This document shows, piece after piece, positions 15,965 through 56,720 of a stretch of DNA of 64,000 nucleotides. The DNA is taken from assembly GCF_963921235.1 (NCBI RefSeq), contig NC_086097.1, positions 48,362,001 to 48,426,000 on the forward strand. Reading direction: 5' to 3'. The DNA is from Mobula hypostoma (Eukaryota). Position numbers and translations under genes: made by a program. Within the stretch, counting starts at the first letter, position 1; each line of letters begins with the position of its first letter. The notes under the pieces were generated by a model, which made no database searches, had not been told where the DNA came from, and worked only from the letters and a program-made list of their open reading frames with translations.

Positions 15965-16780
15965 CCAGGTAGCACCTATGGACAAAAATACAGTTGATGT
16001 TTTGGACGAGAAAACTTTGGCAGGACTGGAGAAAAAAGTTGAGGAGTAGATTTGAAAGGTGAGGGGAGAGGAGAGAGAAACGCCGGGCGATAGGTGAAAC
16101 TTGGAGGGAGAGGGCTGAAGCAAAGAGCTGGGAAGTTGATTGATGAAAGAGACAGAAGGGCATGGAAGAAAGAAGAAAGGGGGGAAGGAGCACCAGAGGG
16201 AGGTGATGGGTGGGCAAGGAGATAACGTGAGAGAGGGACAAGGGGATGGGAAATGGTGAAGGCTGGTGGGGGGATGGAGGCATTACTGGAAGTTTGAGAA
16301 ATCGATGTTCATGCCATCAGATTGGAGGCCACCCAAACAGAATATAAAGTGTTGTTTCTTCAACCTAAGTGTGGCCTTATCCTGACAGTTGAGGAGGACA
16401 TGGATGAACATATCGGAATGGGAATGGGAAGTGGCATTAAAATGAATGGCTACTGGGAGATCCCATTTGTTCTGGCAGATAGAGTGTAGATGCTCGGCGA
16501 AGCGGTCTCCCAATCTACATCAGGTCTCACTGATCTATAAGAAGCCATACCGGGAACACTGAACACTGTCTATGACCCCAACAGACTCACAGATGAAGAG
16601 TCACCTCACCTGGAAGGACTGTTTGGGGCCCTGAACGGTAGTCAGGGAAGAGGTGTGGGGGCAGGTGAAACACTTGTTCTGCTTGCAGGGCTGAGTGCCA
16701 GGAGGGGGATCAGTGGGGAGGGACGAATGGACAAGGGAGTCGTGTAGGAAGCGATCCCTGCGGAAAGGAGAAAGTGGGGG
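15965..16780 (-). mobile_element. PLE family 1, GIY-YIG end and 3' terminal repeat
   Basis: GDRFAEHLHSI..DLPVAIHFNATSHSH..LQSDGMNIDFSNFQ*. Confidence 0.9.
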
Positions 16781-16782
16781 GG

Positions 16783-17185
16783 AGTAATGCCTCCACCATT
16801 ACTCCCCCCACTCCCCCTTCACCATTTCCCATCCCCTTGTCCCTCTCTCATGTTACCTCCTTGCCCACCCATCACCTCCCTCTGGTGCTCCTCCACCCCC
16901 CGACCCCCCTTTCTTCTTTCTTCCTTGCCCTTCTGTCTCTTTCACCAATCAACTTCCTAGCTCTTTGCTTCATCCCTCTCCCTCCAAGTTGCACCTATTG
17001 TCTGCTGTTTCTCTCCCCTCCCCCCACCTTTCAAATCAAGCTTTTTTTCTCCAGTCCTGCCGAAGGGTTTGACCCGAATCGTTGACTACTTTTTTTCCAT
17101 AGATGCTGCCTGGCCTGTTGAGTTCCTCCAGCATTTTGCGTGTGTTGCTCGGATTTCCAGCGTCTGCAGAATTTTTTGTGTGTTG
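16783..17185 (+). mobile_element. Inverted copy of the PLE 3' terminal repeat (decayed HHR at about 17053-17087)
   Basis: Starts at the ORF stop (GTAATGCCTCC) and mirrors 16283-15965. Confidence 0.85.
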
Positions 17186-18504
17186 TGACTCTCACCCGTG
17201 TGCTTCCAGTGCATGTCACAATCTTTCGCTTTGCCAACCTTTAACTTGTATTTTAACCTAGTGATGGTGAAATTGCTTGAGTGTATCTCCATGTGTACAA
17301 AGTATTTTTGGAGACTTACCATTTTCCTTAGAGAGGACAGTCATCTGGTGTAGCTATTTTGTAGCAATGCATTGCTAACTCAGTCTACAGCAGGGGCTTA
17401 AGTCTCGTTGGTGAAATATCTGCCTTACAAAATAACCATTATTTCTTTTGTCAAGTGAATGATTTATCCCCTCGTGTAGTTGTGCAACTGATGATTGGAA
17501 TGGAATCTTAAGAAGATTTTCTTTAGGATGGTTGAGGAGATTTATGAATGGCACTTGGAAAGTTTTAGATGGATTTGTAGTACTAAAACTGATTTCAGTC
17601 AGAATCTACTGACAAGCTATCCCTTTTCCTAACCTGCACGTATCCACAGCATGTTATATCTGTCTAGGACCTCTGTACATACTGATAAGAGTGCAAAGCA
17701 CAGCAAGCTAGGGTGGCAAGGGCCAGTGGTGATGATTCATCACTGGACAAATCCTCTGACTAAGTTTAGCCATGTCACTGTCAAATAGGACAACATCTCT
17801 GCCCTGACTGGCAACATTGGGAGCCTTGGCATGTATGCCCTGGTTTGGAAATATTGAGGTCATATATTGAACAAATAGACATGCACTTCAAAATACATAC
17901 TTCAACTCTGTGGAATTTGAGGGGAAGATGATAACAATAGGGCCCCAAAACAAGTGCAAGTAGTAAAAAGCAAAACACCAAATGAATATTGCATCAGAAG
18001 TACTGTATACAGAACACTGATTCATCTTCTCCATGAAAAACATGCTGATGATGTACAAAAACTGGAAGTTTACTTTAATTTAAAGCTCCATAATTACCTG
18101 AGATTAGTAACTTGGAGACAAGAGCTTGAAGTAAGCTGTGACAGTGAGTACATTGTTTCATTACAGAAGCTATCCTTCCATTGCTATTCCGGTACCTTCT
18201 TAGATCATACCTTATGCGATGGGCCTGTGTGTGCATCCATGGACCAACAAATTCAGTCAGACCCACTAATTAAGATCTTGTGTGTAAAATTCTTGTGTTG
18301 ATGGATATTACTTCCAAGAGCGGTAGAGAATTGTGTTAGAGACAAGTGACTGGTACAACTATAGTCCTCAGTCGGAAAACATCACCTTTTGTCGAAGGCT
18401 GTGAAGACAAATCTGAAGTATACTTGTGAAATTAGTTCAGTCAGTTGTTAACACTGCAACGGCTACTCATTCTCAAAGGACATACTGGAAGGTTCATCCA
18501 CCAT

Positions 18505-26060: not shown

Positions 26061-26574
26061 TTCTGATTAATTTTTTTACCAGATTGCTTTACTTTTCTCA
26101 ACATAAATGGCTATCATTCAAGTTCAAGTTTATTGTCATCTGACTGTACACATATACAGCCAAACAAAAAAATGTTCCTCTGGCAACACACATAAAAATT
26201 GCTGGTGAACGCAACAGGCCAGGCAGCATCTATAGGAAGAGGTACAGTTGACGTTTCGGGCCGAGACCCTTCGCCAGGACTAACTGAAAGAAGAGATAGG
26301 AAGAGATTTGAAAGTGGGAGGGGGAGATCCGAAATTATAGGAGAAGACAGGAGGGGGACGGATGAAGCTAAGAGCTGGAAAGTTGATTGGCAAAGGGATA
26401 TGGGAGAATCATGGGATGGGAGGCCTAGGGAGAAAGAAAGGGGGAGGGGGGAATCCCAGAGGATAAGCAAGTAGTATAGTGAGAGGGACAGAGGGAGAAA
26501 AAAAAGAGAGGAAAAAATACATATATAATAATAAGAAATAAATAACGGATAGGGTACGAAGGGGAGGTGGGGCA

Positions 26575-28290
26575 TTAACGGAAGTTGGAGAAGTCAATGT
26601 TCATGCCATCAGGTTGGAGGTTACCCAGACGGAATATAAGGTGTTGTTCCTCCAACCTGAGTGTGGCTTCATCTTTACAGTAGAGGAGGCCGTGGACAGA
26701 CATATCAGAATGGGAATGGGATGTGGAATTAAAATGTGTGGCCACTGGGAGATCCTGCTTTCTCTGGCAGACAGAGCATACGTATTCAGCGAAACGGACT
26801 CCCAGTCTGCGTCCTATCTCGCCAATATATAGAAGGCCGCATCGGGAGCACCGGACGCAGTATATCACCCCAATCGACTCACAGGTGAAGTGTCGCCTCA
26901 CCTGAAAGGACTGTCTGGGGCCCTGAATGGTGGTGAGGGAGGAAGTGTAAGGGCATGTATAGCACATGTTCCGCTTACAAGGGTAAGTGCCAGGAGGGAG
27001 ATCGGTGGGAAGGGATGGGGGGTACGAATGGACAAGTGAGTCGCGTAGGGAGCGATCCCTGCAGAAAGCAGAGAGAAGGGTGGAGGGAAAGATGTGCTTA
27101 GTGGTGGGATCCTGTTGGAGGTGGCGGAAGTTACGGAGAATTATATATTGGACCCGGAGGCTAGTGGGGTGGTAAGTGAGGACAAGGGGAACCCTATTCC
27201 TAGTGGGGTTGCGGGAGGATGGGGTGAGAGCAGATGTACGTGAAATGGGGGAGATGCGTTTGAGAGCAGAGTTGATGGTGGAGGAAGGGAAGCCCCTTTC
27301 TTTAAAAAAGGAGGACATCTCCTTCGTCCTGGAATGAAGAGCCTCATCCTGAGAGCAGATGCGGCAGAGACGGAGGAATTGCGAGAAGGTGGTGGCATTT
27401 TTGCAAGAGACAGGGTGAGAAGAGGAGTAGTCCAGGTAGCAGTGAGAGTCAGTAGGCTTATAGTAGACATCAGTGGATAATCTGTCCCCAGAGACAGAGA
27501 CAGAAAGATCTAGAAAGGGGAGGGAGGTGTCGGAAATGGACCAGGTAAACTTGAGGGCAGGGTGAAAGTTGGAGGCAAAGTTAATAAAGTCAACAAGCTC
27601 AGCATGCGTGCAGGAAGCAGCGCCAACGCAGTCATCGATACAGCGAAGGAAAAGTGGGGGACAGATACCAGAATAGGCTTGGAACATGGATTGTTCCACA
27701 AAGCCAACAAAATGCACGTATAGCTGGGACCCATACGGGTGCCCATGGCTACACCTTTAGTTTGGAGGAAGTGGGAGGAGCCGAAGGAGAAATTATTAAG
27801 AGTAAGGACTAATTCCGCTAGACGGAGCAGAGTGGTGGTAGAGGGGAACTGGTTAGGTCTGGAATCCAAAAAGAAGCAGAGAGCTTTGAGACCTTCCTGG
27901 TGGGGGATGGAAGTATATAGGGACTGAACATCCATAGTCATAGTCATAGTCATAGTCATACTTTATTAATCCCGGGGGAAATTGGTTTTTGTTACAGTTG
28001 CTCCATAAATAATAAATAGTAATAGAACCATAAATAGTTAAATAGTAATATGTAAATTATGCCAGTAAATTATGAAGTAAGTCCAGGACCAGCCTATTGG
28101 CTCAAGATCCATGGTGAAAATAAAGTGGTGGGAGCCAGGGGACTTAAAATCATCGAAAATTTCAGAGCGTGAGAAGTGTCACGAACATAGGTGGGTAGGG
28201 ATTGAACAAGGAGGGATAAAACAGTGTCGAGGTATGCAGAAATGAGTTCGGTGGGGCAGGAGCAAGCTGAGACAATAGGTCTACCTGGAC
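26575..28290 (-). pseudogene. PLE RT/GIY-YIG ORF (frameshift at about 27717, insertion at 27936-28106)
   Basis: GRPIVSAC, MDVQSLYTSIPH, GVAMGTRMGPSY, RCIDD (canonical YIDD altered), CKRNMCYTC, VIYCVRCSRCGLLYIGE. Confidence 0.9.
27936..28106 (-). mobile_element. 171-bp LINE/SINE 3' end with (ATGACT)4 tail
   Basis: TSD ATCCAT at 27930-27935 and 28107-28112; AATAAA before the tail; interrupts the PLE RT. Confidence 0.9.
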
Positions 28291-28824: not shown

Positions 28825-29480
28825 ATTAGAGTCAGGTCTAATATCACTGGCATATGCTGTGATATTTGTTGTCTTTGTGGCAGCAGTACAATGCAATACA
28901 TGATAATAGAAAAAAATTGTGAATTACATTAATATATATACAGAACATAGAATAGTACAGCACAGTACAGGCCCTTCGGCCCACAATGTTGTGCCGACCC
29001 TTAAACCCTGCCTCCCATATAACCCCCACCTTAGATTCCTCCATATACCTGTCTAGTAGTCTCTTAAACTTCACGAGTGTATCTGCCTCCACCATTGACT
29101 CAGGCAGTGCATTCCACGCGCCAACCATTCTCTGAGTAAAAAATCTTCCTCTAATATCCCCCTTGAACTTCCCACCCCTTACTTTAAAGCCATGTCCTCT
29201 TGTATAGAGAAGCAGTGCTATATAGTTAAATTAAATAAGTAGTGCAAAAATAAAAATAAAAAAGTAGTGAGGTCGTGTTCATGGGTTCAATGTCCATTTA
29301 GGAATCAGATGGCAGAGGGGAAGAAGCTGTTCCTGAATCACTGAGGATGTGCCTTTAGGCTTCTGTACCTCCTTCTTTATGGTAGCAATGGGAACAAGGC
29401 GTGACCCAGGTGATGGAGGTCCTTAATGATCGATGCTGCCTCTTTGAGTCATCATTCCTTGAGGATGCCCTGGATACAGC
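28825..29480 (-). mobile_element. Rex/Babar 3' end, interrupted by CR1
   Basis: Homologous to 2085-2460. Confidence 0.8.
28941..29205 (-). mobile_element. CR1 3' end, same subfamily as 41030-44056
   Basis: Near-identical to 41035-41300; VGAWNALPES..FKRLLDRYMEE. Confidence 0.9.
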
Positions 29481-29847
29481 AGTACCAAATCTCTCCCTAA
29501 AATACGTCATGAAATTTGAAGATATTAATGCAATTGCAGAATCCAGACTTGCAATTCACCAACTGTTCTTCATAGAAATTTCATCGATTGTTCTATTAAC
29601 ACAGGAGCAATTGTATTCATCTAAATGCGTGGTACACATTATTTAGTTCTGGAATACCCTTGGCTCACTCACTCCCTCCATCAGAATCAGGCTGCTCTGT
29701 TTTTTATTCACACAACACCAACATAAAGAAAGCTGTTAATAAGTGATGCAAACACGAGGGATTCTGCAGATGCTGGAAATTCAAGCTACACACATCAAAG
29801 TTGCTGGTGAACGCAGCAGAACAGGCAGCATTTCTAGGAAGAGGTAC

Positions 29848-29883
29848 AGTTGATGTTTCGGGCCAAGACCCTTCGTCAGGACT
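29848..29883 (-). ncRNA. Mirror hammerhead motif with two CpG-type changes
   Basis: Minus strand: AGTC-CTGACGA-A-GGGTCTTGGCCC-GAAA-CATC-AACT. Confidence 0.65.
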
Positions 29884-29932
29884 AACTGAAGGAAGAGCTA
29901 GTAAGAGCCTCTTACTAGCTCTTCCTTCAGTT

Positions 29933-29968
29933 AGTCCTGACGAAGGGTCTTGGCCCGAAACGTCGACT
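29933..29968 (+). ncRNA. Minimal type I hammerhead ribozyme motif, intact core
   Basis: AGTC-CTGACGA-A-GGGT(CTTG)GCCC-GAAA-CGTC-GACT. Confidence 0.8.
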
Positions 29969-30544
29969 GTACCTCTTCCTAGAGATGCTGCCTGGCCTGC
30001 TGCGTTCACCAGCAACTTTGATGTGTGCAGCTGTTAATAAATGAGTAAGGAAATGTCTCATTTCAGAAGACTTGATAATTTTTGTATATTTGCAGATGGG
30101 AGAAGTTACTCTAATGCTTGGTTTTTAAAAGTCTAATGCAATCAAGTAAGTCAGAAAAGGTAAAGGCTCAGGGCTAAAATGGCCATTGATCCAGCTTTGA
30201 TCTGCTTTCCTCATTGAAAGTAAAAGAAAAGTAAATGATAAGCAATTCATTAGCTTCCTTTGGTAATCAATACACATCCCATGGCCATTGTGTTAGGAAA
30301 TCTTTGATTCCTTTTCAACCTTGTGAACAAGAGATAAAAGATAGAGATAGCAATTTTTAAACATAACTTCCCATATGCAGCCAATGATTTAAAGGGAAAG
30401 CTTTGACAACTAAATTGAGAAAATGGGAATGCAGGGACAACAATAGCCAACAATATCATTCATGCCAAGCAAACTATTTGGCTGATGTGTTAAAAGAATT
30501 TATCCATTCTCAGTTTTATAATATAACCTAATCTCATTGAGAAG

Positions 30545-30810: not shown

Positions 30811-31028
30811 AGAGACTTAGCATGACACTATTACAGCTGGGGGCATCAGAGTTTGGAGTTCAATACCGGCATTTTCTGTAAGGAGTTTGTACACTCTCCC
30901 CATGGAATGCTTGGGGTTTCTTGGGTGCTCCTGTTTCCTCCCACAGCCCAAAGATATACTGGTTAGTAGGTTTGTCCCGTGATAAAGCTAGGGTTAAATT
31001 GGGGATTGCTGGGTGGTGTGGCTCAAAG

Positions 31029-33010
31029 CCGGAGTGTGGCTATTTTGGAGTGTGTTTTGGAAGCAGTGGGTCGAGACGGTTGACTGGAAAATGGCGGAGA
31101 GAGAGAACATCAAGGAAAGAGCCAAGCTGTTGAAGGAAGTTTTTGGTGACAGTGGAAGTGAACTAGAGTTGGAGGTTGGCAGGAAAGAGGAACGGAATAG
31201 AAAGAGGAAGAAAAGAAAGCAGAGGTACGGGATATCAAACTCTGAGGAGTCAGCAGATGATCAAAACAGGACAGCAAAACAATGGAAAGAAGATGAGATT
31301 AAAGCAATTATAAAACTAAGTGAAGATGAGACGTCTTTTGCTGATTGGTACCCGATTCGTTTGACGAAGATGCTCAACAAAATTATAGGCGAGATTAAAG
31401 GAGCAAAGATTTTACAAAATGGATCGCTATTACTGATTTGTCGGGATAGTGCTCAGCAAGGCAAAGTGATAAGATTATGTAGAACAGATGGCAAAGAAAT
31501 ACAATGCTCAATACCTAACAATAGAAAGTGGACTAGAGGAGTTATTTCGGGGATACCAACAAAAGTTACTATGGATGAGATTGAACAGAATATAAAAGGA
31601 GCAAAGGTTATTGAGGCCAAACGTTGAAAGTTACAAGAAACGGAAAAAAATGTGATAGTTTATCGGTAATGATTAACTTTGAAGAAGAGAGATTACCGAC
31701 TAACATTTACTTAGGGTATATGTGTTATGCGGTTAGAATATATATACCACTGCCTTTAAGATGCTATAAATGTCAGAAATTCGGGCACATTGCGGCAGTC
31801 TACAGAGGAAAACAAAGATGTAGGAGATGCGCTAGAAAAGATAAATATAGGAAATGTGAAGTGGGAGCTAGGCTGAAATGCTGCAATTGTGGCGAGGAAC
31901 ACAGCGCAGCTTATCGAGGGTGCATTTATAGCAAGAAGGCGGCTGAGATACAATATGTAACAGTAACTCAAGGATCAGTTATGCAGAGGCAGTGAAAGAA
32001 TTTGATGAAAAAAAGACTGTCAAGCAAACAAATACAGGGAATAATAAACTGGTGCATTGTGAGAGCTGTAATATGAAAAATAAGGATACACTATTAATGA
32101 GTAGAAAGGATTTTGTGCTTTTTATGATGGATGCAATTAATTGTTCAGCGCAAACAAGCAAAAGAACTGAGAAAATTAAAATTATCGTCAAATCTGCAGA
32201 AAAGTATCTTGGTATTAAAGGGATTAGGTTGGAAGAAGTCAAGAAGTCAAAGAAATGCTGAATGGAGGATCCAACAGTTCACAGGCAGGGGAGATGAAAT
32301 CTTAATGGCAGTATATTTATTGCAAATGGTCAAGAATTTAAGAAGTGTTTCAGAACTTAAGAAAAATCCTCGGATTTTATGGTTGAAGCCCAGGGTAAAT
32401 GTGCAGAACTCCAACAACAAATAGAAGTACCCAACAAGAACAACGGTGAGTTGGAAAGAGATTGGAAAATGGAGATTATTACAAAGATACAAAAGGAAAA
32501 GGAACTTGTTGCAAAGTGAATTATCTACATTCAGATTATAAAATGAAAACATGGAAGCAAATGAAGAAGAACTCCGAGGTCTCAGTAAACAACTGCAGGC
32601 TACGATCCAAGAAAAAGAAAACCTGAAAAAGCAGATAGACTTGGAAAAGCAGCAATTTTAAAAGTATAACGTGTGATAATTACTATTCTTTAACAAGACA
32701 ATTTTAGTCTTACAAGTGGTGTAGATGAAATCAATGTAATTGAGGTAATGCAACTACATGAAAACATGTGACAAAATTAGGGAAGAATAGCAGTTTGCGG
32801 CATTATCTGATGAGCGCATTTAAACATTCACGAGGAATTGCAACTACAGAGTGATGCTAATAGGGAACTGCAGGCTGAACTAGATTGTCTAAAGTAAAGA
32901 ACTCCAGGACGTATTTGGTTGGAACACAAGAAGTCTAGCAGGTGGCGGTAATGCACTGAAAACTGGCTGCCAACCGCCATAAAACAAAAAAAGAGAAGAA
33001 GAAGAAGGAT
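31029..33010 (+). mobile_element. Non-autonomous I/Nimb-clade LINE derivative
   Basis: TSD TGGCTCAAAG at 31019-31028 and 33011-33020; zinc-knuckle ORF1; 3' stem TGGCGGT..ACCGCCA; (GAA)n tail. Confidence 0.85.
31091..32305 (+). pseudogene. Gag-like ORF1 with three CCHC knuckles (frameshifted)
   Basis: RGVISGIP, PLRCYKCQKFGHIAAV, CRRCA, CCNCGEEHSAAYRGC; TAATG stop/start overlap at 32303-32307. Confidence 0.85.
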
Positions 33011-40512: not shown

Positions 40513-43500
40513 AAAAGGGCAGAAGTGGGAAGAGGAATAACAGACATTAAAAATCTACACACCAGTCAGATAAAACTTTTAAGGATGTACTTTCATCAAT
40601 GAAGACATGATTCAGCACTCCACGCGAGCATATGCAATTCTGACAGGAAGTATGCACCACTGAACTTAATTGAGAACTCAACTCAGAAAAATGAAGACAT
40701 TATCGCTATTGAAAAAAAGTTAACCAGTGGGAGAGCATGACCCTCCATGGAAGACATCCCCATGACCCGAGCAGAATAGATTTCAACAAGGAAATGCCAA
40801 ACACCTAGGCTCAGAGTTGGAGACCTCTTCCCAGAAACAGAAGGGTTCTTTGTGGCAATACAAGACCAGGTGGTTAACAAAAAAATTATCAAAAAGTCAA
40901 AATAAAAGACAACAAATTCAAGATGATAAATGTAGAAAATGCCGAGAGAAAACAGAAACAATCCAGCAAAGGGGATCCAGTAGCAGCTTAACTTTACCTG
41001 ATAGCTTACACAGGCACAATTAAGTTGCAAACATAGAACATAGAGTAGTACAGCACAGTACAGGCCCTTTGGCCCACAATGTTGTGCCGACTCTTAAACC
41101 CTGCCTCCCATATAACCCCCCACCTTAAATTCCTCCATATACCTGTCTAGTAGTCTCTTAAACTTCACTAGTGTATCTGCCTCCACCACTGACTCAGGCA
41201 GTGCATTCCACGCACCAACCACTCTCTGAGTAAAAAACCTTCCTCTAATATCCCCCTTGAACTTCCCACCCCTTACCTTAAAGCCATGTCCTCTTGTATT
41301 GAGCAGTGGTGCCCTGGGGAAGAGGCGCTGGCTATCCACTCTATCTATTCCTCTTATTATCTTGTATACCTCTATCATGTCTCCTCTCATCCTCCTTCTC
41401 TTCAGAGAGTAAAGCCCTAGCTCCCTTAATCTCTGATCATAATGCATACTCTCTAAACCAGGCAGCACCCTGGTAAATCTCCTCTGTACCCTTTCCAATG
41501 CTTCCACATCCTTCCTATAGTGAGGCGACCAGAACTGGACACAGTACTCCAAGTGTGGCCTAATCAAAGTTTTATAGAGCTGCATCATTACCTCGCGACT
41601 CTGAAACTCTATCCCTTGACTTATGAAAGCTAACACCCCATAAGCTTTCTTAACGACCCTATCTACCTGTGAGGCAACTTTCAGGGATCTGTGGTCATGT
41701 ACCCCCAGATCCCTCTGCTCCTCCACGCTACCAAGTATCCTGCCATTTACTTTGTACTCTGCCTTGGAATTTGTCCTTCCAAAGTGTACCACCTCACACT
41801 TCTCTGGGTGGAACTCCATCTGCCACTCCTCAGCCCAATTCTGCATCCTATCAATGTCTCTCTGCAATCTTAGACAATCCTCTACACTATCCACAACACC
41901 ACCAACCTTTGTGTCATCTGCAAACTTGCCAACCCAACCTTCTATTCCCACATTCAGGTCGTTAATAAAAATCATGAAAAGTAGAGGTCCCAGAACCGAT
42001 CCTTGTGGGACACCATTAGTCACAACCCTCCAATCTGAATGTACTCCCTCCACCATGACCCTCTGCCTTCTGCAGGCAAGCCAATTCTGAATCCACCTGG
42101 CCAAACTTCCCTGGATCCCATGCCTTCTGACTTTCTGAATAAGCCTGCCATGTGGAACTTTGTCAAATGCCTTACTAAAATCCATGTAGATCACATCCAC
42201 TGCACTACCCTCATCTATATGCTTGGTCACCTCCTCAAAGAACTCTATCAGGCTTGTTAGATACCATCTGCCCTTCACAAAGCCATGCTGACTGTCCCTG
42301 ATCAGACCGTGATTCTCTAAATGCCCATAGATCCTATCTCTAAGAATCTTTTCCCACAGCTTTCCCACCACAGATGTAAGGCTCACTGGTCTGTAATAAC
42401 TCGGAATATCCCTACTACTTTTTTTGAAAAAGGGACAACATTTGCCTCCCTCCAATCCTCTGGTACCATTTCCGTGGACAACGAGGACATAAAAATCCTA
42501 GCCAGAGGCTCAGCAATCTCTTTCCTTGCCTCGTGGAGCAGCCTGGGGAATGTTCCGTCAGGCCCCAGGGACTTGTCCATCCTAATGTATTTTAACAACT
42601 CCAACACCTCCTCTCCCTTAATATCAACATGCTCCAGAACATCAACCTCACTCATATTGGCCTCACTCATATTCAAGTTCCCTCTTATTGGTGAATACCG
42701 AAGAGAAGTATTCACTGTGGACCTCATTCACTTCCACAGCCTCCAGGCACATCTTCCCACCTTTATCTCTAATCAGTCCTACTTTCATTCCTGTCATCCT
42801 TTTGTTCTTCACATAACTCAAGAATACTTTGGGGTTTTCCTTTACCCTACTCGCCAAGGCCTTCTCATTCCCCCTTCTTGCTCTCCTCAGCCCCTTCTTA
42901 AGCTCCTTTCTTGCTACCCTATATTCCTCAATAGACCCATCTGATCCTTGCTTTCCAAACTTCATGTATGCTGCCTTCTTCCACCTGACTAGATTTTCCA
43001 CCTCACTTGTCACCCATGGTTCCTTCACCCTACCATTCATTATCTTCCTCACTGGGACAAATTTATCCCTAACGTCCTGCAAGAGATCCCTAAACATCGA
43101 CCACATGTTCATAGTACATTTCCCTGCAAAAACTTCATCCCAATTCACACCCACAAGTTCTAGCTTTATAGCCTCATAATTTGCCCTTCCCCAATTAAGA
43201 ATTTTCCTGCCCTCTCTGATTCTATCCTTTTCCATGATAATGCTAATGCAGCGGTGGTCACTGTCCCCCAGATGCTCACCCACTGAGAGATCTGTGACCT
43301 GACCCGGTTCGTTATCTAATACTAGATCTAGTATGGCATTCCCCCTGGTCAGCCTGTCAACATACTGTGATAGGAATCTGTCCTGGACACACTTAACAAA
43401 CTCTGCCCTGTCTAAACCATTGGAACTAATCAGGTGCCAATCAATATTAGGGAAGTTAAATTCACCCATGATAACAACCCTGTTATTTTTGCACCTTTCC

Positions 43501-44600
43501 AAAATCTGCCTCCCAATCTGCTCCTCGGTATCTCTGCTGATACCAAGGGGTCTACAGAATACCCCCAATAGAGTAACTGCTCCCTTCCTGTTCCTGACTT
43601 CCACCCATACTGACTCAAAAGAGGATCCTGCTTCATTACCCACCCTTTCTGTAGCTGTAATAGTATCCCTGACCAGTAATGCCACCCTCCTCCCCTCCCC
43701 CACCCCGCATCCCTTTTAAACCACAGAAATCCAGGAATATTGAGAATCCATTCCTGCCCTGGTGCCAGCCAAGTGTCTGTAATGGCCACTACATCATAAT
43801 TCCATGTATGTATCCAAGCTCTCAATTCATCACCTTTGTTCCTGATGCTTCTTGCATTGAAGTGCACGACCTTTAGCCCTTCTACCTTTACAACCTTTAT
43901 TCTGCTTCTCTTTCCTCAAAGCCTCTTTATATGTTTGATCTGGCTTTACTCCATGCACTATATTTGCAGTTCTCGCATGACCTTTATCCTCCTCCACCTC
44001 ACTATCGGCTCTAACACTCTGGTTCCCCTCCCTCTGCAAATCTAGTTTAAACCCCATTCATCATTCATTAAAATCTTGCTTTAAAATACAAAACTCATAA
44101 AAGAATCACACCTTACTATAAATACAAGCCTGATCCTGTTTTAGAGTCAGAACACCACAAATTATACTATGACCCATCATTTATTAGGGATAAGACAATC
44201 CATAAAACTGTCAGGATATAACATTACAGGATAAACAAGCAAGGACAACTTACTTAATAGATACAGTCATTCCAAACAGACATAACTTACAGAAATCAAT
44301 AAATGAAAAACGCCAGAAATATGCCGAATTAGAAGAGGAAATTGAAAGACTTTTCAAAACGTACAGGGTATGCATTGTCCCATTTGTAGTATCTACAACT
44401 GGAACCATCCCAAAGGCACTATACCATAGCATTAAACAAATAAGGTACACAGTAATGTTTATGTAAATCTTCAGAATGCCACAATACTAAACACCACTAA
44501 AATAGTCTGGAAGTTCCTAGCCATTGAGAAATGGGCATGCTTGGCTATGCCCATGTCTCAGGTGTTACCAGCTTGAGCTGAGAGAAAAAATGTAATACAA
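40513..44600 (+). mobile_element. R4/Dong copy 2 (3' third, split by CR1; parts 40513-41030 and 44057-44600)
   Basis: LFPETEGFFVAIQDQVV, CRKCREKTETIQ, HRHN.VAN, then YYKYKPDPVLE and the REL motif after the CR1. Confidence 0.8.
41030..44056 (-). mobile_element. CR1 LINE with near-complete frameshifted ORF2 (APE endonuclease and RT)
   Basis: FNARSIRNK, GEFNFPNIDW, GDSDH, YRPVSLTSVVGK, GVPQGSVLGPLLF, FADD; ORFs 43430-43867, 42663-43703, 42383-42727, 41094-42455. Confidence 0.95.
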
Positions 44601-48540: not shown

Positions 48541-49508
48541 TTAACACTTGTGGCAACGAATTCCACAGATTCACCACCCTCTGACTAAAGAAATTCCTCC
48601 CTATCTCTGATCTAAATGGACGAGCCTTTTTTCTGAGGCTGTGCCCTCTGTTCCTTAGCTCATGCACTATAAGAAACATCTTCTCCACATCCACTCTATC
48701 TAGACCTCTTAATATTTGAAAGGTTTTAATGAGATTCCTTCTCATTCTTTTAATCTCCAGTGAGAGCAGGTCCAGAGCCATCAAATGCTCCTCATACATT
48801 AACCCTTTCATTCCCAGAATCATTCTTGTGATCCTGCTTTGGACACTTACCAATGACAGTGTATCTTTTCTTGGATAAGGAGCTCAGAACCGCACACAGT
48901 ACTCCAAGTGCAGTCTGGCCAATGCCTTATAAAGCCTCAGCATCACATCCTTGCTCATAGATTCTAGTCCTCTCGAAATGAAGGCTAACATTGTGTCACG
49001 GTACTGATCGGTTATTCTCTGTGTCCCTTTAAATTTACTTTGTGTCATGATCAGGACCGTTGACTCCTTGTTTTCCTTAACTCATTGTTTCCCCGTGTTT
49101 CTTGGGCTCTGTAATTAAAGGCACTTAAGTTTCAGCTGAATGAGCAGTATTTAGTGTCGGGCTTACAGCTACTTGGCACTAGATCATCACCTGACATCAC
49201 TTCATGTCACCGAAGCAAGTGCGAGCAAGTCACCTTGCCAGAGCAAGCTAAGTCACATTGCTGGAGCAAGTCAAGTGTCCTCTCCGAAGCGAGTGCCGCT
49301 AAGTCGCCTCTCCTCACCGAGTGAGCCCGTCAAGTTACCACGCCTGAACGAGCCTGCTATGCTACCTCGTTGGAGCGGGTCCATCAAGTTAACCCACAGG
49401 AGTGAGTCAAGAGCCACTGTCTGCAGTTATGGGGCCGAGTCGAGAGCTCACCGCTACTTGGAGCCACTCGGTGCCAAGATAAAGAACTGTCTATTGTTCT
49501 GTGGTTTT

Positions 49509-49700
49509 GTCTCTTCGTGTCCTTGCCTCCGCTGGGTAGGTCTGACCATTTGCCGCTACCCTGAGTTGGGAACTGTCTCTTCGTGTCCTCATCTCTGCTG
49601 GGTAGGTCTAGCCGTTTGCCGCTACCCTGAGTTGGGAACTGTCTCTGCTAGGTAGGTCCGGCCATTTGCCGCTAATCAGAGTTGGGAATTCTGTCTCTTC
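49509..49700. repeat. Tandem repeat (units about 45-65 bp) inside the LTR
   Basis: Three copies of GGTAGGTC..(A)TTTGCCGCTA..GAGTTGGGAA.TGTCTCT. Confidence 0.8.
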
Positions 49701-49704
49701 CGAT

Positions 49705-50036
49705 GTTCCAAGTCCAGGCTCCAATGTTCTGAGTTCCAAGTTCAGGATCCGATGTTCCGAAGTCCAAGTCCGGGTCCCGAGTCCCGGTCCAAGTCCGGGT
49801 CCCGAGTCCAAGTCCAAGTCCGGGTCCCAAGTCCAAGTCCAAGTCCAAGTCCGGGTCCCGAGTCCCAGGCCAAGTCCAAGTCCAAGTCCGGGTCCCCGAG
49901 TCCAAGTCCAAGTCCAAGTCCAAGTCCAAGTCCAAGTCCGGGTCCCGAGTCCCAGGCCAAGTCCAAGTCCAAGTCCGGGTCCCGAGTCCCAGGCCAAGTC
50001 CAAGTCCGGGTCCTGAGTCCCAGGCCAAGCCCAGGC
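49705..50036. repeat. Compound minisatellite (GTCCAA/GTCCGG/GTCCCGA/GTCCCAG)n
   Basis: Directly visible. Confidence 0.95.
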
Positions 50037-50711
50037 TCTGCAACCCAATCTAGGTCCATGGTGCAAGTCCAACTCCAGCCATGCATATTCCCGCTTCTGC
50101 TTCATTCACTCCTTGATGTCTCTTTGTACAATCCTTGCTTCCTTGCTTTCCTAGTAACTATTAATAAACTCTGTTTTTGTTAACGCTATAAAACGTGTTT
50201 GTGTCCTGCATTTGGGTCCATCCATGCTCCACACTTGTGACACATTGTAATCGTGTTCCATACCACCAACTCAACTTGCAAGTTAAACTTCAGAGGATCC
50301 TGTACAAGGACTCCTAAATCCTTTTGCACTTCTGGTTTTGAATTTTCTCCCTGCTTAGAAAGTAGTCTATGCCTTTATTCCTTCTACCAAAGTGCATGAC
50401 TGTCCACTTTCCTACACAGTATTTTATCTGCCACTTCTTTGCCCATTCTCCCAATCTATCCAAGTCCTTCTGCAGATTCCCTATTTCCTCAATACTTCAT
50501 CTATCCGCTGCCCCTCCAACTATCTTTGTATCATCTACAATCTTAGCCACAAAGCCATCATTCTGTTAGCCAAATCTTTGACATAAGGTGACATAATGTT
50601 CCTGCATATTATTTGGAGGTTTCTTCACAACAGGGTTTATTCCTTTTGCTGTATCCAAGAAGTAGGCAGCTTGCAGATCTGGAAGCTCCTATAGCTTCTG
50701 CAGTCCTTTGC

Positions 50712-55589: not shown

Positions 55590-56720
55590 TGACAATATTT
55601 GTTGGTTCTGATTTCCTTGAGCCTTGTCCATTCCCAAAGTATAAAGTTGGTCCAAGATGCCCCAAGGCTCTGCCAATTTTTAGTCAAATATAGCCTTTGA
55701 ACTTCTTGGTGGTGCTAAGGCGGTATCAGATTAATGTTGTGGGATGGAGTCAAGAATGCTTACATCAAGGGCAGAGTTGTAGTTGAGGAGATCTTCAGAA
55801 TGTTCCTTTATTATCCTTGATAAATTCACCACTCACTTTCTGAGTTATGAGTGGGTTTACTCTTGGGTATGGGGGCCAATGAAGGCTTTGACCGGCTGAA
55901 GTGTCACCAACATTGTGGTTGTCAGCGAGTTACTGAAACTTCTGTGCTCTTTCCACTCACCATTTCTTGTTGGATATCAGTCTTTGGTGTCCTTTCACCG
56001 TCAGACATGATGGGACATCTATTTCAGGAAGACTTTGTACTTGCAGGTAATTAGGTCCAGCATCTCCTTTCTCCTGATAATTCCCAGCCAATGATACCCA
56101 CAGAAATCCTACCAACTGTCCTGAAGTTCAGCCTATTGGCACTAGTAAACTAATTCAAGACTTCTCTACCAGTATAAACCAGTACTCATTTTGCAGAAAA
56201 GTCCAGAATTGGTTTACAAGTGCCAATAGGGTGGACTTTAGAACAGTTGGTATGCTTTCTGTGGCTACCATTAGCTGGGAATCAACATGTTGTTTATGTT
56301 GCATTATCTGAAGGCTGCCTTAGTGGGGTTCTTGATAGCTTCACTATTGATTTTCTAGAGGCAACATCTGTTGTTGTCTTAGTTTTAGGGTCAGGTTTAA
56401 GGAGATAATATAGCAGATTAGGTGTGATTAATCCCACTATTATCAATACTTGTCACAGTTAGGATGATCTTTGGCATCACTCATTTGGATATAATCTAAT
56501 AAGTTCTAGTGCTGGATTTGTTGTGCTAAAATAAGGTGTCTCTCTGGCAAAACAGGGTGTTGATTTTGACAAGACTTGGACAGGAGGCAAGTTTCTATTA
56601 GAGTTAGCCCTAGTTCTGCCTTTCTCAACACACCCTGCCAGAGGATTAGGTTCTTTCCTATTCTGACATTTCAGGTCCCCAGTAAAATCTACTTGTCTCC
56701 CTCTGAGTTATGAGCCAGGT
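55590..56720 (-). mobile_element. Old RTE LINE remnant (endonuclease to linker)
   Basis: NSN..LLSK..LVKINTLFCQRD..H*NLLDYI across frameshifts. Confidence 0.45.

Follow-up and report, generated by a model that had tools for sequence, protein, structure and literature searches.

The palindrome at positions 29731 to 30044 of the window (the whole 64,000-nucleotide stretch of Mobula hypostoma DNA analysed here) is one real insertion, and it was very probably produced by one integration event of an endonuclease-bearing Penelope-like retrotransposon (PLE) of the Neptune/Nematis type, which left two short copies of its 3' end head-to-head within one target duplication. The palindrome arose in a single event, its arms are derived from the element, one of them carries a tail, and its look-alikes elsewhere in the genome are of independent origin. 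The insertion is most likely dead and neutral, and in the best explanation of the locus its two hammerhead motifs are passengers.

Structure of the palindrome

The features of the locus, and of a longer PLE copy in the same window, are as follows.

26184..28290, minus strand: longer decayed copy of the same family, tail-less end; broken reverse transcriptase (RT) frame, C-terminal GIY-YIG, own 13-bp duplication with 1 mismatch
29731..29746, plus strand: left target-site duplication of 16 bp with 1 mismatch, its first 12 bp perfect; the final base is possibly part of the tail
29746..29784, minus strand: 39-nt Penelope-like tail, confined to the left arm and matching the tailed ends seen at locus L037 and in other copies
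29785..29907, minus strand: tailed arm, the PLE 3' end, 5'-truncated 122 nt from the tail-less end
29848..29883, minus strand: damaged minimal type I hammerhead motif, from a core search and the arm sequences
29908, no strand: central base C; the element's own next base is A, as seen in other copies and loose contig ends
29909..30027, plus strand: tail-less arm, same 3' end and same truncation base as the left arm; stops 4 nt before the usual tail-less end
29933..29968, plus strand: intact minimal type I hammerhead motif, from the sequence; architecture compared by eye with that in the available text of PMC4209133
30029..30044, plus strand: right target-site duplication, from repeat comparison and the empty site of organism C

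Two inverted arms (29789–29907 and 29909–30027) face each other around the single base at 29908 with exactly 5 mismatches in 119 bp, and the unit is bounded by a 16-bp direct repeat (29731–29746 and 30029–30044) with 1 mismatch, the first 12 bp of which are perfect; both observations reproduce those of an earlier note on this DNA. The same note had assigned the two arms to a PLE terminus and had seen a CTTG stem-II loop in both of them, as against CTCG in the long copy. The end of the long element (26183–26305) does match both arms at 89–92%, and the arm sequences agree with the description of the loops. The unit is asymmetric, in that an extra 39-nt element-derived tail (29746–29784) is present on the left arm and absent from the right. 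All five mismatches between the arms are left-arm changes when compared with the family letters in the alignment. The central C at 29908 is, to judge from its sequence context, either non-templated or a later change, since the element continues with A. Folded as RNA, the palindrome gives a hairpin of -241.6 kcal/mol (z -29.95), and none of 200 shuffled sequences folds equally well.

Empty site and outer junctions

In a contig of organism C (one contig, depth 9) the sequence 29450–29730 continues directly at 30029. This contig is without 298 bp, equal to the insert plus one copy of the duplication, and keeps one duplication copy; the 12–16-bp repeat together with this empty site identifies a target-site duplication. 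Both outer junctions are present in contigs of organisms A (run X1, which may be the source of the assembly) and B, which dates the insertion to the shared lineage of A and B, later than its separation from C. The flanks show 15 differences in 871 bases in organism B and 25 in 753 in organism C. The single insertion proposed in the earlier note is thus borne out by one enclosing duplication, the outer junctions in A and B, and the empty site that it had suggested seeking in relatives.

None of the contig records listed at the locus spans the palindrome centre, which is represented by the assembly alone, and this would suit either an assembly or library artefact or two unrelated insertions lying back to back. 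We give these possibilities almost no credence, given that the outer junctions occur in contigs of two organisms, that the empty site holds one duplication copy, that the arms differ at five sites and only one has a tail, and that a single duplication surrounds both arms.

The parent element

Atlas clusters at 0.96 identify RVT_1, HTH_animal and GIY-YIG in the parent element, with an RT followed by a GIY-YIG endonuclease; Pfam-A returned 0 families in the three frames searched (3/3). The parent frame also has a three-cysteine motif ahead of GIY-YIG, in the position of a Zn-finger-like linker. A linker of this kind between RT and endonuclease is assigned to Neptune and Nematis in the accessible part of PMC8557442, and at the level of sequence the motif points to one of these two types. 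The tailed end of the element has 23,869 exact 42-mer matches in 3.48 Gb, with 0 matches for the reversed control.

The long copy at 26184–28290 is a relative of the palindrome and not its source. It is a solo tail-less insertion, and is interrupted near 27940–28110 by unrelated AT-rich sequence, the start of which is a short hexamer repeat. A related Penelope-like subfamily accounts for an older inverted insertion at 15970–17190, with longer, unequal arms and the tail on its right end.

Several other features of the window were recorded. An older palindrome at 56075–56287, with 93-nt arms that are 83% complementary and 27 nt apart, has no match to the Penelope-like end and may be a miniature element of DNA-transposon type. 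A tandem array of 6–13-nt units adjoins three 50–66-nt repeats at 49500–50080, and other LINE-type remnants, named by eye, lie at 30998–31995 (an ORF1-like frame with a zinc knuckle) and 41094–43915 (a CR1-like endonuclease-RT frame).

Hammerhead motifs

A CUGAnGA...GAAA core was found on each strand of the palindrome, the two starting 58 bp apart. That each arm contains a core and that the plus-strand core is intact had been stated in the earlier note, and both statements hold, with the addition that the minus-strand motif is damaged. The plus-strand motif consists of stem I (AGUC/GACU), CUGACGA, an extra A, a 4-bp stem II with a CUUG loop, and GAAAC-GUC without loop III, with cleavage predicted between 29964 and 29965; core, stems I and II, the missing loop III and the ACGU of the minimal type I layout are all present. 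On the minus strand GUC has become AUC (29854), which abolishes the ACGU dimer palindrome, and a pair in stem I is broken (29851). Two of the five left-arm changes have thus damaged this motif, and its activity would presumably be affected.

Minimal PLE hammerheads are described in the available portion of PMC4209133 (Cervera and De la Pena 2014) as having a short stem I, an unpaired base before stem II, no helix III loop and a dimer-type core, and motif pairs 100–700 bp apart on opposite strands are tied there to truncated PLEs. The motifs in the window resemble these metazoan type I hammerheads in their minimal layout and opposite-strand pairing, and differ from those in that text in host and family, in a stem II of 4 bp, in core starts only 58 bp apart, and in being known here from sequence. 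Rfam gave no hammerhead match in the window and 3 weak microRNA-type matches, none at the gathering score; the mir-4788 match, also below threshold, reflects the palindrome hairpin only. When a single arm and a dimer were folded, the hammerhead fold was not the lowest-energy structure, an outcome that says little for motifs of this size.

Genome-wide, 241 copies start exactly at the predicted cut, as compared to 67 and 42 at the neighbouring positions. We considered this excess as a clean sign of cleavage in vivo and rejected it as such, since it is mostly a microhomology joint at hammerhead stem I. By eye, 56 of the first 100 cut-site copies listed, from several subfamilies, are this joint and 13 are another microhomology joint, leaving about 75 cut-site copies after such joints are discounted. 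The stem I joint is thus recurrent, and identical centres can arise repeatedly by microhomology. Of the short arms in the sample described below, 3 of 33 (L048, L062 and L066) start at the predicted cut, one of them via the same microhomology.

The motif occupies positions 63–98 nt from the tail-less end of the element, and one hammerhead per strand is therefore to be expected wherever the arms of an inversion reach about 100 nt. Folding makes a competition between cleavage and the hairpin plausible, and in a transcript through the locus the hairpin should bury both motifs. No RNA record was listed for the unit, and a run that is a guess at RNA (X16) lacks coverage over most of the unique flanks; neither is counted as evidence about expression. 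We also considered that the insertion is retained as a working RNA, either through a 119-bp hairpin that supplies small RNAs for silencing the element or as a cleavage switch in a host transcript. The hairpin is very stable, the insertion is present in two organisms, and there are thousands of such hairpins in the genome. The drift between the arms (5 of 119) is nonetheless about what the flank divergence from organisms B and C suggests, one hammerhead is damaged, and no host exon was identified nearby, the open-reading-frame list holding only repeat-like frames; a retained function is accordingly very unlikely.

Short inversions in the genome

The wider population was sampled through 60 of the first 100 tailed ends listed (L031–L090), which lie in the first 11.7 Mb of contig C1 and were chosen regardless of structure; these are 60 of 23,869 matches, on one contig, and the sample favours young copies. 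L049 was assigned by hand, L085 and L086 overlap, and for five arms that run to the reference's end an inverted partner may have been missed. An adjoining inverted arm was found at 33 of the 60 tailed ends, which thus combine 5' truncation with an inverted copy as the palindrome does. Arms in the inversions range from 22 to more than 1,100 bp; over the whole sample the shortest tailed arm is 22 nt, and the longest run past the 1,522-nt reference. As judged by eye, 28 of the 33 inversions have an 11–18-nt duplication, 27 of 33 short-arm ends fall within -5 to +13 of one site, and no short arm (0 of 33) has a full tail. Solo tail-less ends are also found (6 of 59), with a clear duplication in two, namely L035 by script and the long copy in the window by eye.

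At least 2,905 short inversions genome-wide have both arms reaching the tail-less end. Among these 2,905, one tail start is present in 2,595, two in 146 and none in 164, a count that uses 5 tail bases only and in which the last class includes mutated tails. With 2,887 tail starts in total, independent choice would give 1,452, 717 and 735, respectively. Exactly one tail start is thus present in 89% of short inversions, and the palindrome, with 39 nt on its left arm, has the one-end tail of 30–40 bp.

The lengths of the two arms correlate (Spearman 0.60, p 0.0002, n=33) and agree within 5 nt in 12 of 33 inversions, compared to 5.4 expected (permutation p 0.0005). With refined ends (n=33), 11 agree within 5 nt, the tail-less arm is longer by more than 5 nt in 14, and it is shorter in 8; its excess reaches 279 nt. 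Tailed arms end 85–112 nt from the tail-less end, on the 5' side of the hammerhead, in 25 of 60 cases, and part of the symmetry in arm length follows from these shared stop hot spots. The arms of the palindrome stop at 122 nt, just past this cluster. A second cluster of truncation points in L031–L090 was seen near 370–445 nt from the tail-less end. The clustering of truncation points suggests that they are stall sites of the reverse transcriptase.

Alleles were compared between arms at 52 loci, with L013 and L030 skipped. At four non-CpG subfamily sites the arms agree in 47 of 49, 49 of 50, 46 of 50 and 43 of 51 cases, and mean divergence is 4.5% within loci versus 6.5% between loci. Rare variants are mostly confined to one arm (107, versus 5 shared), as expected from mutation after insertion. 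Some loci, for example L044, L064, L071 and L087, have discordant arm alleles, and one shared RNA is therefore not the rule everywhere. The 33 junctions comprise 12 with microhomology, 2 that are blunt and 19 with filler. The filler at the centre often copies nearby element sequence, as at L047, L049, L074 and L006; filler that copies adjacent sequence resembles the templated insertions of alternative end joining.

Evidence against a mobile family

The earlier note had read the palindrome either as a MITE-like or retrozyme-like family mobilised by the PLE or as a fold-back product of PLE integration, and took a centre unique in the genome as the mark of a one-off inversion. For a non-autonomous family, in which the palindrome is transcribed and reinserted as a unit by the Penelope protein, one can cite a whole-unit search in which 40 of 3,550 candidates were scored: the window's own locus and 39 more all span the greater part of the palindrome, and the flanks are different at each. 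This likeness of the best matches stems from selection by score, and their centres still differ; in an alignment of 28 whole-unit loci, flanks and centres both do so. An apparent clustering of centres among the whole-unit matches was rejected on the same ground of score selection.

Genome-wide, 1,525 loci have their two arms joined, no more than 60 nt apart, in this same part of the element. The first 50 of these, inspected by eye, have 45 distinct centres, none occurring more than twice, and the five identical pairs among them could again be cited for a family. In four of the five, at 8.88/9.72, 72.1/77.4, 100.2/102.7 and 120.1/123.3 Mb of C1, the two members are separated by about 5 Mb at most and may reflect local duplication, assembly duplicates or rare local re-mobilisation. 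When copies with the same centre were counted, as the earlier note had recommended, 11 loci genome-wide proved to have a centre within 0–2 nt of the window's fold point, which speaks against a family. Read with the tail to the left, the other 10 all lack the window's central base, and none (0 of 10) has the CTTG change on both arms, as far as the arms are comparable. Five loci share an AT centre, although their short-arm ends lie at 20, 48, -1, 8 and 87 and they carry two subfamily haplotypes.

Unlike a MITE, whose many copies agree in internal sequence and in their ends and have symmetric terminal inverted repeats and a duplication of fixed length, these loci differ in centres and ends and have a one-end tail and duplications of about 11–18 nt. 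Non-LTR retrozymes of animals are described in the accessible portions of PMC7229834 and bioRxiv 10.64898/2026.07.22.740005 as tandem units of about 170–400 nt expressed as linear and circular RNA; like the palindrome they are PLE-derived and short, with type I hammerheads. Whereas retrozymes as described there carry tandem head-to-tail hammerheads on the same strand, the palindrome is an inverted pair without a unit-length family, with one motif per strand, head-to-head; the genomic units are inverted and dispersed, and their lengths form a continuum. There is no sign of a self-copying unit, a MITE or retrozyme family is not supported, and we consider it very unlikely that one exists. A one-off inversion fares no better, as thousands of similar inversions have formed independently. 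Of the fold-back proposal the part that stands is that the palindrome is a by-product of integration, as seen in its duplication, the empty site and the continuum of lengths; literal folding back is the second-ranked of the two mechanisms weighed below.

Mechanism of inversion

As far as can be judged from end products, the mechanism that best accounts for these inversions, and the one we lean towards by a modest degree, is twin priming at both nicked target strands from two start sites, followed by head-to-head joining. The PLE protein would nick both target strands 12–16 bp apart. Of the two 3' ends, one would start cDNA synthesis at the tail site and the other some 40 nt further in, at the tail-less site, with a single RNA probably serving both as template. 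Synthesis of the two cDNAs would end early, in the palindrome at the same base, and their 3' ends would be joined via a short self-complementary match or added bases, with repair filling in the rest. Twin priming at two start sites yields the one-tail rule, the 14 longer tail-less arms and the loop-less centres, and a shared RNA or shared stall sites yield the correlated arm lengths and shared alleles. It is also favoured by the use of the tail-less site as the start of solo insertions with their own duplication, as in L035 and the window's long copy.

Self-priming has been proposed for head-to-head Penelope palindromes, in the part of PMC3846280 available: the 3' end of a nascent cDNA or an antisense RNA pairs back on its own strand, and copying from there yields a hairpin, with unequal arms arising from later deletions at the centre. 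The 11 inversions symmetric within 5 nt fit such a process, as do the many joints at self-complementary points (AT, TA and hammerhead stem I, the last making up the 56 of the first 100 matches listed) and the alleles common to both arms. A fold-back copy, however, is limited to the length of its tailed template and cannot acquire a tail where the template lacks one, and plain folding back cannot give the 14 of 33 inversions in which the tail-less arm is longer, by up to 279 nt. Centres with 0–1 unpaired bases, such as those of the palindrome and L078, leave no priming loop, and the fixed tail-less end, which solo insertions use too, needs a separate explanation. Given its limits on length and tail, self-priming survives only if later deletions reshape the centres, and we regard it as a rather doubtful account. 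Asymmetric deletion is known to reshape the centres of long palindromes. Such deletion at a later time also counts against twin priming, since it could by itself give unequal arms, microhomology and filler.

A more specific form of twin priming can be put forward tentatively, with somewhat less than even confidence. A PLE dimer would prime both strands on one RNA, always with one tail start and one tail-less start, both polymerases would be prone to stalling on the 5' side of the hammerhead fold, and the cDNA ends would be joined head-to-head, often via hammerhead stem I. A Poseidon PLE protein, according to the accessible text of PMC11167929, cuts and extends both target strands in vitro, with two internal starts by which the tail is defined; a dimer is predicted for this protein, and hammerhead cleavage is not needed for insertion. 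The two strands showed no difference in start site in vitro, so the data in that text do not by themselves explain the one-tail rule. No twin-priming model of PLE inversions was found in the literature by title or opening of the abstract, in a search that did not cover most subscription journals.

Relationship to known insertions and implications

The palindrome is an ordinary short member of an insertion architecture already described for PLEs and abundant in this genome. Inverted 5'-truncated PLE copies with a head-to-head palindromic junction, a 30–40-bp tail at one end and one enclosing duplication are reported in the available parts of PMC8557442 and PMC3846280. The palindrome shares with these endonuclease-bearing PLE insertions the inverted truncated copy, the one-end tail and the single enclosing duplication. 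It differs from the inversions described there in that both copies are about 120 bp and the palindrome alone remains, and the thousands of loci found here permit statistics absent from the accessible portions of those two papers. There are also parallels with Poseidon of Anolis carolinensis (Frangieh et al. 2024, PMC11167929), which in the text available has two tail-defining internal starts, cutting and extension of both strands, and a hammerhead upstream of the starts. Poseidon is of another clade, however, inverted insertions are not modelled in that text, and its lack of a strand difference in start contrasts with the one tail per inversion seen here.

In twin priming of L1, both nicked strands prime cDNA and microhomology joining yields an inversion within one target duplication. 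The L1 pieces cover different parts of the RNA, whereas here both cover the same part and a palindrome results.

As one of thousands of dead insertions the single locus matters little, and the population matters more. According to the available text of PMC8557442, the origin of the one-sided tail and inverted repeats in PLEs is undefined, and the countable rules described here (one tail per inversion, correlated lengths, shared alleles, and stops beside the hammerhead) make this question of PLE integration testable. Hairpins this close to perfect, present in their thousands, might also give rise to double-stranded RNA and to errors of annotation. If the model of a dimer and stalled polymerases is true, it would explain both the inverted repeats and the one-sided tail of PLEs and replace the self-priming model, and the hammerhead fold would have a structural role apart from cleavage.
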